Part shown: one piece after another, positions 9,468 through 41,485 of the stretch | Numbering within the stretch: the first letter of the stretch is position 1 | How the letters are laid out: each line of letters begins with the position of its first letter | UHGV virus genome: UHGV-2027207 | Direction: 5' to 3' (one strand) | Length of the DNA: 42,294 nt | Origin: a virus | Notes under the pieces: model-generated | Seen by the model: only the letters and a program-made list of their open reading frames with translations | Told to the model about the DNA's origin: nothing | Database searches by the model: none | Made by a program: the position numbers and the translations under genes

Positions 9468-9626
9468 TTGCCATACATGTTTTGCAACCACGAAGGATGT
9501 AATGAAACAGTTAAGCTACCAGCACAATACTGTGCCAAACATCAACCAGCAAAGCTATCTGACTCAATCAAAGTAGAACAACCTACAGATAAGATTGTTG
9601 TTAAAGCAAAGAAGACTACTAAATAA
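9468..9626 (+). CDS. 52-aa Cys-rich (zinc-ribbon-like) protein, paralogous to the N-terminus of the adjacent HNH endonuclease
   Basis: Not in the track. AAAGGAGGTGG lies 5 nt before TTG 9468. CNHEGCNETVKLPAQYCAKH versus CAVSSCRNKVELPERYCEAH. Confidence 0.45.
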   Translation: MPYMFCNHEGCNETVKLPAQYCAKHQPAKLSDSIKVEQPTDKIVVKAKKTTK

Positions 9627-9669
9627 TAGTAGTCTTTTCTTATATAAAATAGAAGGAAGGAGTAACACA

Positions 9670-10065
9670 ATGATCCAACGTAAGTGTGCAGTATCTTCAT
9701 GTCGTAATAAAGTAGAGTTACCAGAAAGATACTGTGAAGCACATCAAGGACACAACAACAGTCAGTACAATAAACATGTAAGATACAATGATGATAACAA
9801 GAAGTACAGTAACTTCTATCATTCAACCCAATGGAGGAATGCACGTAAAGCCAAGCTAATGGAGCAACCACTCTGCGAGGTATGCTTAGCACAAGGCAAG
9901 TACACCAACGCTGACATGGTTCACCATTGTAAATATGAATTAAGAAGTCCAAATGGATGGAAACATAGACTTGATTTAAATAACTTGGAGTCAATCTGTT
10001 ACGAGTGTCACAACAAGGAAGAACACAGCTACAGCTGGAAAAATAGAGGTAGGGAACAGCGCTAA
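9670..10065 (+). CDS. HNH endonuclease (terminase/cos-associated type)
   Basis: CEVCL...HH..Y.....N...NL..IC..CHN; located just upstream of terS. RBS GGAAGGAG. Confidence 0.75.
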   Translation: MIQRKCAVSSCRNKVELPERYCEAHQGHNNSQYNKHVRYNDDNKKYSNFYHSTQWRNARKAKLMEQPLCEVCLAQGKYTNADMVHHCKYELRSPNGWKHRLDLNNLESICYECHNKEEHSYSWKNRGREQR

Positions 10066-10413
10066 ATCAACAGCCACGCAGCCAAAATTATTTTAGGGAG
10101 AGCAAAAATGTTTTTACCCCCCTACCTTTTTATAACGAATTAATCGCTGACCCCTCCTCTTCGTACGAAATTCTAAAAATGAACTTTCAAAAACGCCCTT
10201 TTCCCTCGTAAAACGTCATTTACAACTGGTTTCTTGTGTTGAAAATTAAGGATTCCTGGTGCGTAGGTGGTGTTATTTCGCTTATACGATTGTTCCCCCT
10301 ATAAACATGATTGAACCCTGGTTTCTCTACACAGGATTCTTTTTATATGATATAATAGAGCTATATAAGGGAGTTAGCCGTTAACTCAAAAATAAAATAA
10401 GGGAGGTTATACA
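10066..10413. other. candidate cos/packaging site region
   Basis: 348-bp non-coding stretch with C-runs (CCCCCC, GACCCCTCCTCTTCG) between the HNH and terS-side genes, at the HK97-like position. Confidence 0.3.
10346..10359 (+). promoter_or_regulatory. TG-extended -10 promoter TATGATATAATAGA
   Basis: Exact repeat of 8836-8849. Confidence 0.5.
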
Positions 10414-10596
10414 ATGCCTGCACCAAAACCAGTGTACGTAAAAGATTTATCAACTGGGCAGACACGCAAATTCAAATCACAATTCGCAGCAGATGATTTC
10501 TATAATAAGAAGCGTGGCTACTTTAAGGATATTAAAACAAAATTAGGCGGACGCAATCGTCACTTTGAAATTACAGAAGCCCCAAAGGAGGGTTAA
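10414..10596 (+). CDS. small basic protein
   Basis: RBS GGGAGG. Confidence 0.45.
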   Translation: MPAPKPVYVKDLSTGQTRKFKSQFAADDFYNKKRGYFKDIKTKLGGRNRHFEITEAPKEG

Positions 10597-10893: not shown

Positions 10894-11358
10894 ATGGCAA
10901 GACCACGAAAACTATTAAACGCTCAGAGTGGTAACTTGACCACTCAGCAACGAGAAGAGCGTGAGAAGGAGGAAGAAGTACTTTATAACTACGAAAAGTT
11001 AGACTTTAGTTTTTATCCACCAGGTTTATTACCACAAGCATTCAATGAATGGGATCGCATTGGAGCATATGTTGGAGACTTACCTATTAGTGAGTTGGAT
11101 GTGAATACAGTCATTAGATATTGCAACTACAATTATCTATATGCAGAGGCAGTAGAGAAGGTGGCTCAAATGGGCGCTATTGACCCTGAGACAGGCAAAG
11201 CCAACCCTTGGGTTAATGCTATGAACTCATACTCAAAAGAGCTAAAAACGGCAACCAATGACCTGGGATTAACAATCAATTCAAGAATGAAGATTATTCT
11301 TCCAGCAGAGAAAGAAAAAGAAGTGATTGATCCATTTGCGAAAATGTTTGAGGGATAA
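10894..11358 (+). CDS. terS: terminase small subunit (P27-like)
   Basis: About 154 aa, lying between HNH/cos and terL. Confidence 0.65.
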   Translation: MARPRKLLNAQSGNLTTQQREEREKEEEVLYNYEKLDFSFYPPGLLPQAFNEWDRIGAYVGDLPISELDVNTVIRYCNYNYLYAEAVEKVAQMGAIDPETGKANPWVNAMNSYSKELKTATNDLGLTINSRMKIILPAEKEKEVIDPFAKMFEG

Positions 11359-11446
11359 CCTACACAAAACTAAAAGTTTATGATATACTATTTATAGCAA
11401 ATGAGTGGTAATCATTAGATACACCATTATCACAAAAGTCGGATTT

Positions 11447-11457
11447 TGTGATATAAT
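11447..11457 (+). promoter_or_regulatory. TG-extended -10 promoter TGTGATATAAT
   Basis: Drives the non-coding interval upstream of terL. Confidence 0.45.
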
Positions 11458-11464
11458 ACTTAGT

Positions 11465-11673
11465 AGAGGTTTACAGATCCTACCAAAACTGGCCTAATAG
11501 AGGATACACCACCTATCTAAAAATAAGTGCTCGCTACAGTGTCTAGCGAATGCGTGATAGTATGACCCTCTTTGACGACAAGCACGACAAAGCAGTTAGC
11601 CACATAACAGAGGGCGTGGAAACCTGCAGATACTAACATCCCACTAGTCTAGCTAACTAGTGGGTCTTTTTTT
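11465..11673 (+). ncRNA. candidate ~210-nt non-coding RNA bounded by its own promoter and terminator
   Basis: No credible ORF/RBS. Internal stems TCGCTA/TAGCGA and CCCTCT/AGAGGG. Terminator CCCACTAG..CTAGTGGG + T9 at 11640-11673. Confidence 0.35.
11640..11673 (+). terminator. intrinsic terminator
   Basis: 8-bp GC-rich stem followed by TCTTTTTTT. Confidence 0.7.
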
Positions 11674-11683
11674 GTGTTATAAT
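11674..11683 (+). promoter_or_regulatory. TG-extended -10 promoter TGTTATAAT for terL
   Basis: Immediately follows the terminator. Confidence 0.5.
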
Positions 11684-11715
11684 ATAAATGACTAGCATAA
11701 AAGGAGGATACATAT

Positions 11716-13488
11716 ATGTTTGATCCAGTACAAGATTATATAGACCTAATTGAAAAAGGATATGTTGAAGGTAAAAAATATATTGTTGAAGATGGTAAAT
11801 ACAAGACAATTAAAGTTGACATTCGTGTAGGTAAGAAAATACAAAAAGCGATTGAACGCCATCAAAGAGAAGTAGAATTATCTAAACTACCAGATTATCC
11901 ATATATTTATAGACCAGAAGAATCCATCCCAGTCATTAGGTTTATGGAAATGCTTCCTGATCCAAAAAGTCGTAAACCAATGAAGTTAGCAACCTTCCAA
12001 AAATTCATCATTGGTTTACTATATGGTTGGCGCAAAAAGAGAGACAATACTAGACGTTTTAGAAAGGCATATATATCCCTAGCACGTAAGAACGGTAAGT
12101 CGTTAATTGTGGCTGGCATTGCCCTATATGAGTTTTTGTTTGGTAAAAATCCAGCAGCAAGCCGTCAAGTAGTAGCGGCAGCGAACACAAAAGAGCAGGC
12201 AGGAATCGTTTTCAGAATGCTTAAATCTCAATTAATGGCACTACGCAGCGTATCAAAAGAAGTGAAGAAAAGAACCACTGTGCGTAGATATGACATTGAA
12301 GCGAGTGATGAATCAACAGTCAAGCCATTATCCAGTGACGCAGACACACTAGATGGCTTAGATGTTTTGTGTGGTATTTTAGATGAGTATGGTGAAGCTA
12401 AAGATACAAGTATTATTGAAGTATTAGAATCATCACAAGCCCAACAAGTAGAAGGTCTAATTTTAATGATATCTACGGCTACAAAAAACTTAAATGGTCC
12501 TATGTTCACAATAGATTACCAATTTGTTGATAAGCTACTCGATGAAGAAGTGAAAGCTGATGCCTATCTAGCACTATGCTGGGAGATGGATAATCTATCA
12601 GAAGTAGATGATGAAGCGAACTGGATAAAAGCCAATCCATTATTAGAAATACCAGAGGCTTATGAGTCAATGATGGAGCATAAACGCAACTCACTTGATG
12701 AATATAAAGGTAAAATGGATTTATCAGGATGGCTTACAAAAGAAGAAAATTTTTGGGTACAATCATCTAAAGATAGTTTTGTAACAAAAGAAGAATGGGA
12801 CGCAGTGAAAGCACCCAATCAGTATAACATTAAGGGTAGAAAAGTCTATATTGGCATTGACTTAGCAAGAACATCAGATATGACAGCCGTTTCATGGATT
12901 ATCCCAATAGAAGAAGAGCATAAGTTATTACTAGATACACATGGTTTTGTGTCTTCAGTTGGAGGTATAGACCATAAACAATCCATTGATAAAATACCAT
13001 ATAGACAGTATGAGTCAATGAACCTCATTCATATTTCCCAACGTGAAGATGGGTTAATTGATACAGAAGAAATGTGTGATTGGATACGTGATTTCATAGA
13101 TTATAATGATTTACAATTAGTTGGTATCTACTATGATCCATTTATGATGGATAAAGCTTTGATTAATCTAAGTAAGACCTACCCCAAAAAACTAATTGAA
13201 GTACCTCAGAAAATCAATTATTTATCTTCACCAACAAGAGCCTTGCGTGAGTTAATTCGTAGAGGTGAGGTAATGCACACCAATAATCCTTTATTGAATC
13301 GTGCAGCATACAATGCAATGATTAAAGAGTACAATGACAGCGTTGCAATTGATAAGCAAATAAACAGGAATAAAATTGACTCACTTGACGCCATAATAAA
13401 TGCAATGAGTGACGCTCAATATCATGATTATGACGCACCAACCTTGCAAGATTTACTAGATAGCGGTGAGTTTGGTTTTGGATACTAA
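11716..13488 (+). CDS. terL: terminase large subunit
   Basis: 590 aa, ATPase + nuclease architecture. RBS AAGGAGGA. Confidence 0.85.
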   Translation: MFDPVQDYIDLIEKGYVEGKKYIVEDGKYKTIKVDIRVGKKIQKAIERHQREVELSKLPDYPYIYRPEESIPVIRFMEMLPDPKSRKPMKLATFQKFIIGLLYGWRKKRDNTRRFRKAYISLARKNGKSLIVAGIALYEFLFGKNPAASRQVVAAANTKEQAGIVFRMLKSQLMALRSVSKEVKKRTTVRRYDIEASDESTVKPLSSDADTLDGLDVLCGILDEYGEAKDTSIIEVLESSQAQQVEGLILMISTATKNLNGPMFTIDYQFVDKLLDEEVKADAYLALCWEMDNLSEVDDEANWIKANPLLEIPEAYESMMEHKRNSLDEYKGKMDLSGWLTKEENFWVQSSKDSFVTKEEWDAVKAPNQYNIKGRKVYIGIDLARTSDMTAVSWIIPIEEEHKLLLDTHGFVSSVGGIDHKQSIDKIPYRQYESMNLIHISQREDGLIDTEEMCDWIRDFIDYNDLQLVGIYYDPFMMDKALINLSKTYPKKLIEVPQKINYLSSPTRALRELIRRGEVMHTNNPLLNRAAYNAMIKEYNDSVAIDKQINRNKIDSLDAIINAMSDAQYHDYDAPTLQDLLDSGEFGFGY

Positions 13489-41179: not shown

Positions 41180-41208
41180 ATACTATCATATAGTATCTTA
41201 CTTGTCAA
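41180..41208 (-). promoter_or_regulatory. promoter TTGACA-N17-TAGTAT
   Basis: Exact -35 and a plausible -10 upstream of 40909-41148. Confidence 0.4.
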
Positions 41209-41224
41209 CACAAAACTTTTATTT

Positions 41225-41299
41225 TATGCTATAATAAAGTATAGGGATTCCTCCTCCCTCCTCTCGTTAAGACTAGCCAAGTGGCTAGTCTTTTTGTTT
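41225..41299 (+). ncRNA. candidate ~55-nt C-rich sRNA: TG-extended -10 (TATGCTATAAT, 41225-41235) to a strong terminator (41269-41299)
   Basis: Transcribed sequence AGGGAUUCCUCCUCCCUCCUCUCG + 10-bp stem AAGACUAGCC/GGCUAGUCUU + U-tract. No ORF. Confidence 0.35.
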
Positions 41300-41485
41300 A
41301 TAGTTTTGAATATCTGATAAATATCCAAATACCTCGCGCGCTGTATGAAAATCAACTCTATGAGTATCTTGTGGTTCATTAACATGAAAAACCTCTACAT
41401 AATATTTTAACTCAAATCTGGATTGACTAACTACTGTCGCACAGTATCCATTTGTAAACTCTGTGCTAAATAATTGTTTATCCAT
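41285..41485 (-). CDS. hypothetical protein
   Basis: ORF. Confidence 0.4.
   Translation of the reverse strand: MDKQLFSTEFTNGYCATVVSQSRFELKYYVEVFHVNEPQDTHRVDFHTAREVFGYLSDIQNYKQKD

Follow-up and report, generated by a model that had tools for sequence, protein, structure and literature searches.

The viral genome UHGV-2027207 (42,294 nucleotides, analyzed at its full length and called the window here) is essentially the whole ~42-kb genome of an Enterococcus siphophage of the IME-EFm1, IME-EFm5, and EF36P1 type, with phage EF36P1 as its closest record by BLAST. Between its genes terS and terL lies a gap of 357 bp (11359-11715), which had been singled out in a preliminary description of this DNA and whose extent is borne out by the gene coordinates (Table 1). 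That description read the gap as an independent structured noncoding RNA (ncRNA) with a promoter and a terminator of its own, followed by a fresh transcription start for terL. Every computational test that we ran agreed with this interpretation, and sequence comparisons lead us to conclude that the gap is very probably an autonomous, moron-like gene for a conserved ncRNA with two pseudoknots.

Table 1. Positions of the features discussed in the text, in the window unless a locus number (L) or alignment column is given.
Feature	Position	Strand	Sequence or remark
HNH endonuclease gene	9595-10065		
cos	about 10145-10153		CGCTGACCC on + strand, equal to IME-EFm1 GGGTCAGCG; between the HNH gene and the open reading frame (ORF) at 10414
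terS	10894-11358		
P0	11361-11389	+	TACACA-17-TATACT with TG; directly 3' of the terS stop codon
P1	11429-11457	+	ATCACA-17-TATAAT; extended -10 box TGTGATATAAT
Variable 5' module	11464-11497	+	weak hairpin around GAGGUUUACAGAUCCU; common only to EF36P1 and KEN18
H1	11498-11519	+	UAGAGG, loop AUACACCA, CCU(AU)CUA; A-rich linker after
Pa	11531-11549 (arms 11531-11536/11544-11549)	+	UCGCUA/UAGCGA, 7-nt loop
Pb	11552-11587 (arms 11552-11556/11583-11587)	+	(G)CGUG/CACG(A), 26-nt loop
PK1	11566-11571 with 11609-11614	+	CCCUCU:AGAGGG, Pb loop to Pd loop
Pd	11592-11603/11616-11627	+	GCAGUUAGCCAC / GUGGAAACCUGC
PK2	11538-11543 with 11629-11634	+	Pa loop AGUGUC with GAUACU; closes the domain
Intrinsic terminator	11640-11673	+	CCCACUAGU, loop CUAGCUA, ACUAGUGGG, then UCUUUUUUU
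P2 and terL leader	11675-11715	+	extended -10 box TGTTATAAT at 11675-11683, no -35 box
terL ribosome-binding site (RBS)	11703-11707	+	GGAGG, ahead of ATG 11716
terL	11716-13488		separated from terS by the 357-bp gap
Promoter family sites	8819, 10329, 11362, 11430, 15472, 18926, 19597, 25077, 41208	+	ACACAAA-N12-TGnTATAMT
Promoter family site	37703	-	ACACAAA-N12-TGnTATAMT
Extra hairpin of some relatives	alignment A1 columns 124-152, e.g. L003 1415-1450	+	3' arm could pair with terminator 5' arm CCCACU
M1 copies of relatives	L263 1524-1559 (phiSHEF4), L262 661-694 (IME196), L005 1730-1748 (dArtagnan), L010 1538-1556 (268)		abiF-type hairpin
Efquatrovirus loci	L260 2756-2949, L262 630-1007, L263 1494-2089		terS-terL RNA locus

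Two tandem promoters are predicted ahead of the RNA. The TG-extended -10 box reported at 11447-11457 was recovered by our scan as part of P1 (ATCACA-17-TATAAT with the upstream TG), and a second promoter that had been overlooked, P0, lies upstream of it. As sequence matches, both conform to the sigma-A extended -10 promoter (TGnTATAAT and, at 17 bp, a -35-like hexamer), and their predicted starts, near 11396 for P0 and near 11464 for P1, would give RNAs of ~278 and ~210 nt. Matches to the generic promoter consensus were not enriched in the region (19 versus 18.5 expected), nor were those to the generic terminator consensus (4 versus 2.6 expected). The family ACACAAA-N12-TGnTATAMT, of which P0 is an exact match and P1 also a member, has 10 sites in the window versus 0.81 expected, nine of them on the plus strand and several just upstream of ORF starts. 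The -35-like and -10 boxes of P0 and P1 were kept in 13 relatives while the spacer varied, a pattern expected of genuine promoters.

The promoter family contains a dyad, formed by the -35-like CACAA and the extended -10 TTGTG, that a dimeric regulator could recognize. At P1, a perfect 10-bp inverted repeat (TATCACAAAA-GTCGGA-TTTTGTGATA, 11428-11437/11444-11453) spans the promoter from -35 to -10. Its spacer GTCGGA was invariant in every relative carrying block A, the segment at 11359-11458 that ends exactly at the P1 -10 box, and its arms co-varied (ATCACAAAA/TTTTGTGAT versus AACACAAAA/TTTTGTGTT; ATCAC/GTGAT versus AACAC/GTGTT). This repeat could be an operator, or a hairpin within the transcripts derived from P0.

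At the other end of the gap, the strong intrinsic terminator claimed at 11640-11673 was found again by our scan as a stem at 11640-11664 followed by a T-run at 11667-11673. Its hairpin has a 9-bp stem with 5 G-C pairs and a 7-nt loop, appears in the minimum free energy and centroid folds, and is 100% paired in the 27 related sequences described below, in which its outer pairs covary (C-G/U-A, A-U/C-G). The putative terL promoter P2 does follow the terminator as had been noted, although its box begins at 11675 and not at 11674. TGnTATAAT right after the T-run was kept in all relatives and in Efquatrovirus phages. Host RNA polymerase would thus start at P0 and P1 and stop at the terminator, yielding RNAs of ~280 and ~210 nt, and terL would be re-started at P2, which abuts the T-run. 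The interior of the terminator, ACTAGTCTAGCTAACTAGT (11642-11662), comprises two ACTAGT palindromes, is almost invariant in the 27 copies, and stands at the position of the would-be -35 box of P2. It may double as an activator binding site for the terL promoter. A hairpin ATGCUA/UAGCAU around the P2 -10 box, which seemed to be preserved by wobble pairs, was dropped, as it is broken in the terL-proximal copy of EF36P1.

We then considered what this unit encodes. Two small ORFs exist in the interval, one of 28 codons (11550-11636, plus strand) and one of 40 codons (11517-11639, minus strand). Neither is preceded by a Shine-Dalgarno sequence at proper spacing, in keeping with the earlier remark that no RBS-preceded ORF is present. 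The ATG of the former is absent in 17 of 27 copies (GATAGTG for GAATGCG), and the start of the latter falls in a variable linker and is not conserved. A small protein as the product of the gap can therefore practically be dismissed.

In order to evaluate the RNA, a structure was read from the sequences and then tested on an alignment (A1) of 27 distinct copies of block B, the segment at about 11529-11714, from related Enterococcus phages; pairing partners slid by 1-3 columns served as controls. Standard pairs were formed in 93.2% of the cells, versus 26-47% in the controls; 14 pairs showed changes on both sides, versus 1-2; and the covariation score was 0.265, versus 0.03-0.06. Of the check suggested in the preliminary description, folding in silico and a search for covariation in related phages, the covariation came out in favor of an RNA, and the folding energy gave the stems no backing. 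RNAalifold independently predicted the hairpins Pa, Pb, and Pd and the terminator. By our own tally from the A1 pairings and RNAalifold, there were ~33 G-U cells and 3 A-C cells. The presence of G-U but hardly any A-C intermediates points to selection on the plus-strand RNA, and not on the DNA or on the opposite strand.

Judged by this covariation, the ~105-nt core at 11531-11634 is a genuine structured RNA with three hairpins (Pa, Pb, and Pd) and two 6-bp tertiary pairings (PK1 and PK2). In Pa, whose TCGCTA/TAGCGA stem had been recognized with its coordinates off by one (11530-11548), both sides changed at 3 of 6 pairs (e.g., C-G in 18 copies and U-A in 9). One pair of Pb was U-A in 17 copies and C-G in 10, and the Pb loop holds CCCUCU along with the invariant GAUAGUAUGA and UUGACGAC. 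CCCUCU and AGAGGG lie exactly where they had been placed, but they form a loop-loop pseudoknot, PK1, instead of the simple stem that had been proposed; 98.8% of the PK1 cells are paired, and two adjacent pairs switch jointly from CU/AG to AC/GU. Pd, which has a mismatch patch inside its stem in the window and full pairing in other variants, showed changes on both sides at 6 of 12 pairs, with up to four pair types per position. PK2, also overlooked before, is 100% paired in the 27 sequences and displays one A-U to G-C double change as well as A-U/G-U alternation. A competing long-range helix, AGUAU/AUACU, was disfavored because the compensatory double change of PK2 breaks it. In the proposed fold, the 3' ~105 nt would adopt a compact, closed domain locked by the pairings of the Pb loop with the Pd loop and of the Pa loop with the 3' tail, and the unpaired invariant stretches GAUAGUAUGA and UUGACGAC would be left exposed. 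A search of the phage genome for antisense targets of the invariant loops returned chance-level 9-10-mers only.

Upstream of the core, the H1 stem also covaries in relatives (AGAGG/CCUCU versus AGUGG/CCACU), as read by eye rather than by a formal count. A sequence like the hairpin of the variable 5' module, GAGGTTTACA, is present in one Efquatrovirus phage. A seeming likeness of this module (GUUUACAGAUCCUACCAAAAC) to the 3' half of an Enterococcus type II-A CRISPR repeat was set aside, the 9-mer match being near chance.

The gap sequence was found by BLAST in 22 phage records, all from Enterococcus. The interval is thus kept in 22 of 22 related records, and not absent from close relatives. Scanning with a pattern for the core showed that 13 IMG/VR contigs carry it. 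TerL proteins at least 80% identical to that of the window occur in 21 records, a total similar to that of the 22 RNA-bearing ones. The terS-terL gap measures 357-785 bp in every relative examined, the window having the shortest; in Streptococcus phage Javan445, terS and terL have one small ORF between them and no such gap. Block B is present in all relatives, and its conservation equals or exceeds that of the flanking genes: the window and SSBHU share 99% identity in block B, 93% in terS, and 73% in terL, and the corresponding values for BUCT630 are 94%, 74%, and 77%. A covariance model built from the alignment (R1) detected exactly one copy in the window, at 11518-11673, with 174 bits.

Between P1 and block B, the relatives carry 100-600 nt of extra, GC-richer hairpin modules. 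The stems of these modules covary (e.g., GACGG...CCGUC, GUGAG...CUCAC, and GGAG...CUCC around a constant 15-nt loop), and their presence, order, and copy number vary among phages with near-identical flanks. Two copies of block B occur in KEN21 and in contigs L027 and L254, one of them truncated in both contigs; in L027, the RNA array lies 3' of a methyltransferase-like gene and not of terS. EF36P1 carries a cassette with a promoter, an 86-aa ORF, and a terminator between the RNA terminator and the terL leader (L001 2815-3220), and in DELF1 the space between the RNA terminator and terL is taken by a gene for an HNH homing endonuclease (L012 2261-2800). These cassettes indicate that the RNA unit is separable from terL, and in EF36P1 the segment with P2 and the terL leader remains with terL despite the insertion. 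On these comparisons, the locus is a hotspot at which DNA is inserted and duplicated. In KEN21, the core domains in tandem come from different haplotypes (L007 2404-2741), and Aramis (L013) carries a 61-nt duplication of the terminator-P2-RBS segment.

A similar organization was seen in Efquatrovirus phages of E. faecalis (PricklyPear, IME196, and phiSHEF4), in which TerL is about 64% identical. In these loci, terS is followed by a TGnTATAAT promoter, hairpin modules totaling 150-550 nt, a terminator that is conserved, TGTGCTATAAT, and terL, with gaps of 194-596 bp, and some of the 5' modules are shared. Model R1 had no match in these loci, indicating that the 3' module of Efquatrovirus differs. 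The window would therefore hold the minimal form within a wider class of terS-terL RNAs, with a short variable 5' segment, H1, and the constant double-pseudoknot domain. The phiSHEF4 locus also has a second, internal promoter. In KEN21 (L007 2036-2702) and KEN18 (L002 2502-2986), strings of hypothetical proteins of 30-130 aa are annotated over the RNA region on either strand; such calls are almost certainly spurious.

What the comparisons show of this RNA gene is its features in the sequence, how it is conserved and folded, and that it can be separated from terL; from these we infer its transcription. Like a moron, it has its own promoter and terminator between late genes that are adjacent elsewhere.

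Does the domain instead control terL in cis? On transcripts from P0 or P1, it might decide whether the terminator is obeyed, as an attenuator, a riboswitch, or a put- or EAR-like element would. The element always heads the structural operon of ~20 kb, with a strong terminator and terL immediately after it, its core is universal in the clade, and the compact, pseudoknotted domain with its invariant unpaired bases is aptamer-like. In addition, 8 of the 27 copies, the window not among them, carry a further hairpin, CACCCACU-CUUU-AGUGGUG, immediately before the terminator; its 3' arm could pair with the 5' arm of the terminator as in a classical attenuator. In KEN21, the same C-to-U/G-to-A change is found in all four segments of this attenuator-like layout. 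However, the linker between core and terminator ranges from ~5 to 40 nt, is variable in sequence, and tolerates an inserted hairpin of 29 nt, unlike a tuned expression platform, and no antiterminator pairing was evident in the window. A riboswitch would precede a gene lacking its own promoter, whereas here the conserved TGnTATAAT stands between the terminator and terL. The autonomous cassettes of EF36P1 and DELF1, the swapping of 5' modules among near-identical phages, and the lack of a match to the EAR and riboswitch models in Rfam also speak against control in cis, which we consider rather unlikely. The idea of a structured terL leader, offered earlier as an alternative, is thus weakened by the conserved P2 and by the cassettes inserted before terL.

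The other alternative offered earlier, a packaging recognition element, was examined by locating the packaging site. The 9-nt cohesive end of IME-EFm1, GGGTCAGCG, was determined experimentally (PMC4445525). With its adjoining sequence, it matches the window uniquely at 10136-10153, which puts cos between the HNH gene and the next ORF (Table 1). The gap is therefore not the cos or packaging site, and that alternative is ruled out. Just downstream of cos lie two 34-nt direct repeats (10201-10234 and 10293-10326; 71% identical, 92 bp apart), which are better candidates for TerS-binding, cosB-like sites than anything in the gap. More generally, the gap might act at the level of DNA, as a cosB or pac site or an operator array, or consist of the decayed remains of a mobile element, with no RNA function. 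Homing HNH genes are inserted around the locus in relatives, and both the perfect dyad over P1 and the invariant terminator interior with its two ACTAGT at the -35 position of P2 would suit such a role. The position of the IME-EFm1 cohesive end with its adjoining repeats, compensatory changes that run through G-U and not A-C, and a core more conserved than the neighboring genes make it very improbable.

An RNA acting in trans outside defense could assist a phage protein as its cofactor or scaffold, for example as a multimer like the phi29 packaging RNA (pRNA) joined through CCCUCU/AGAGGG, or could be a sponge for a conserved host factor. Its location inside the packaging module fits such an RNA; the two complementary 6-nt loops covary, and their pairing could be intra- or intermolecular; and a near-invariant core across hosts suggests a conserved partner. 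However, packaging systems with cos, HNH, TerS, and TerL (HK97-like) are not known to need an RNA. Moreover, the core haplotypes do not follow the terL or terS types, no partner could be identified, and the unit behaves as a swappable accessory cassette. We regard this role as quite unlikely.

To place the RNA among known families, we searched Rfam 15 at the gathering threshold and found no match in the window or in the loci of 13 relatives; in E-value mode, only chance-level matches were obtained within 11300-11760, and in the relatives an abiF lead was the sole addition. The GOLLD and ROOL covariance models had no match in the window or relatives, and a tRNA/tmRNA search found none. Bacterial genomes and metagenomes were scanned with a 17-base degenerate core pattern, and the resulting 232 loci were screened with nhmmer, which retained one true metagenomic contig (L254) and zero bacterial genomes; almost all of these loci were chance matches because the pattern was too loose. 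A BLAST search of plasmids with the 816-nt RNA of a relative gave no match. As far as these searches show, the RNA appears confined to this phage group. Literature searches found no described RNA at the terS-terL locus. The RNA would thus belong to no catalogued family, and its kind is best given as a phage-encoded structured ncRNA, or ncRNA moron.

The abiF lead concerns M1, the first RNA module in many relatives. The abiF motif is a hairpin in which an internal loop separates the outer stem (6 bp) from the inner one (3 bp) and whose 11-nt loop, CCUCUnAACnAU, is conserved. The phiSHEF4 copy of M1 scored 31.1 bits, versus a gathering score of 37, and spanned the abiF model (RF03085) at full length (positions 1-37), and dArtagnan, 268, and IME196 gave weaker or partial matches. 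The hairpin was absent from the gap in the Rfam search and from the entire window at up to 2 mismatches. Neither in the window nor in the relatives is an Abi_2/AbiF gene adjacent: the window RNA is followed by terL, and the orphan M1 of the relatives is followed by further modules and terL. The 17-nt core of M1, CGCCUCUUAACAAUGCG, was found in at least 120 IMG/VR stretches (L264-L383), representing at least 103 distinct contexts. In most of them, as read from the printed contexts and not counted, the flanks form an outer stem whose sequence differs by context. Four contexts have an Abi_2 (PF07751) gene that begins no more than 60 nt downstream, so that M1 is the genuine AbiF-associated hairpin. 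The remaining contexts are orphan; 10 adjoin tRNA T-loops, in one a gpA-type terL follows 57 nt downstream, and others adjoin terminators or structural genes. This distribution suggests that phage-borne anti-AbiF RNA decoys are widespread. A similar IMG/VR scan with the 15-mer loop of module M4 returned mostly chance matches in sequences coding for ELETL.

As an RNA antitoxin, the abiF-motif RNA binds AbiF (PMC12373285). Two precedents are given in a review: in the lactococcal phage sk1, AbiF is inhibited by a hairpin of the cos region, and phages evade ToxIN with mimics of RNA antitoxins (PMC13064643). Because relatives carry an abiF-type hairpin in the same transcript, we tentatively suggest that the RNA acts in trans as a protein-binding, anti-defense decoy. 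Made late, it would bind a protein and most plausibly neutralize an RNA-gated abortive-infection or toxin protein of the host; both the trans action and this target are what we infer from the relatives. As the window itself has no abiF module, the anti-defense role of its own RNA is one of association. Taken as a whole, an autonomous ncRNA gene whose late product serves as a decoy in trans is the best explanation that we can offer, at somewhat less than an even chance.

Several observations weigh against parts of this explanation. The window lacks an abiF-type module, and its core domain resembles no known antitoxin and no Rfam family. The core is universal and nearly invariant, whether the phage is one of E. 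faecium, E. faecalis, E. gallinarum, or E. hirae, which would suit a housekeeping or cis function better than an accessory of an arms race. No copy was found in hosts by the degenerate-pattern scan, whose pattern was strict in this respect, or in plasmids by BLAST. A moron would be variably present, whereas the 3' domain occurs in 22 of 22 records and variation is limited to the 5' modules. The putative promoter P2 lacks a -35 box. The folding energy was no better than that of shuffled sequences (z, -0.57), energy z-scores being uninformative on both strands. Finally, the 27 copies come from close relatives, most of them of one of two haplotypes, and several of the covariations are therefore single events.

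A wider view would take in all the modules. Within the clade, the 3' domain would be held constant while 5' hairpin modules are gained, lost, and duplicated. The gaps of IME-EFm1-like and Efquatrovirus phages might possibly form a modular RNA anti-defense island in which recombination swaps decoys. A single late transcript would then string together independent structured decoys, the abiF-type hairpin being the one recognizable module, and the double-pseudoknot domain, as the last functional module of the window, would represent an RNA inhibitor of a new class, directed against an Enterococcus immune effector. Equally, the 3' domain may be a new ligand-sensing or catalytic RNA fold.

A second small promoter-terminator unit was noticed at 41208-41300 on the plus strand, among minus-strand early or replication genes. 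It consists of a family promoter, CAACACAAAACTTTTATTTTATGCTATAAT (41208-41235), ~35 nt with a CU-rich, anti-Shine-Dalgarno-like tract, CCUCCUCCCUCCUCUC, and an intrinsic terminator (41269-41292) followed by a T-run. The 116-bp region is 90-99% identical in 111 of 119 Enterococcus phage records, a wider spread than that of the terS-terL RNA; where these records annotate it, they assign it to a hypothetical protein.

Siphophages of this type are therapy candidates against vancomycin-resistant E. faecium and E. faecalis, and public records mostly leave the gap blank or fill it with implausible 30-aa ORFs, six in the case of KEN21. A conserved double-pseudoknot RNA supported by covariation and lying outside Rfam would be a new RNA fold and, in a phage group that has been sampled well, a gene missing from the annotation. 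If the gap is a decoy island, RNA counter-defense would extend from single cases (pseudo-ToxI and the sk1 hairpin) to a modular, widespread strategy, and the locus could help host-range prediction; the orphan AbiF-antitoxin hairpins common in viral contigs point toward RNA counter-defense as well. If read-through into terL is instead under the control of the domain, late gene expression in phages would have a new RNA regulator.

Four groups of known systems invite comparison. Like the window RNA, the phi29 pRNA is a structured phage RNA (~120-170 nt) encoded at the packaging genes, with two complementary, covarying loops. However, the DNA packaged by phi29-like phages is protein-primed, and neither TerS nor cos takes part, whereas the phage of the window is a siphophage with HNH, TerS, TerL, and a mapped cos; and the pRNA forms a ring on the portal of a podophage through loop-loop pairing between molecules, whereas the loops of the window RNA may pair within one molecule or between molecules. 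In the group of the lambda pR'-6S RNA-tR' unit, HK022 put, and the Bacillus EAR element, as in the window, a promoter that looks constitutive, a transcript of ~200 nt, and a strong terminator stand before the late or structural genes, and EAR, like the window RNA, lies between genes inside a long operon and contains a pseudoknot. The window differs from these by a separate conserved promoter after the terminator, a variable linker, intervening cassettes in relatives, and the lack of a model match, and no Q-like factor was identified.

GOLLD and ROOL, from phages and prophages of Lactobacillales, are likewise multi-hairpin phage RNAs of Firmicute phages with loop-loop contacts, and the RNAs of the relatives reach 400-800 nt. 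The window RNA is ~210 nt long, is placed between terS and terL, and does not match either model; moreover, GOLLD and ROOL have one fixed architecture each, whereas this family is built of swapped modules arranged as beads on a string. Type III-like RNA antitoxins and their mimics (RCd22 with AbiF, and the pseudo-ToxI of PhiTE) differ from the window RNA, which has no abiF hairpin, no repeat array, no known cognate toxin, and a core fixed in the clade. They resemble it in being short, structured, and often pseudoknotted, with a strong promoter and an intrinsic terminator. These antitoxins act by binding a protein, as the window RNA may do, and the relatives of the window carry an abiF-type hairpin in the very same transcript.

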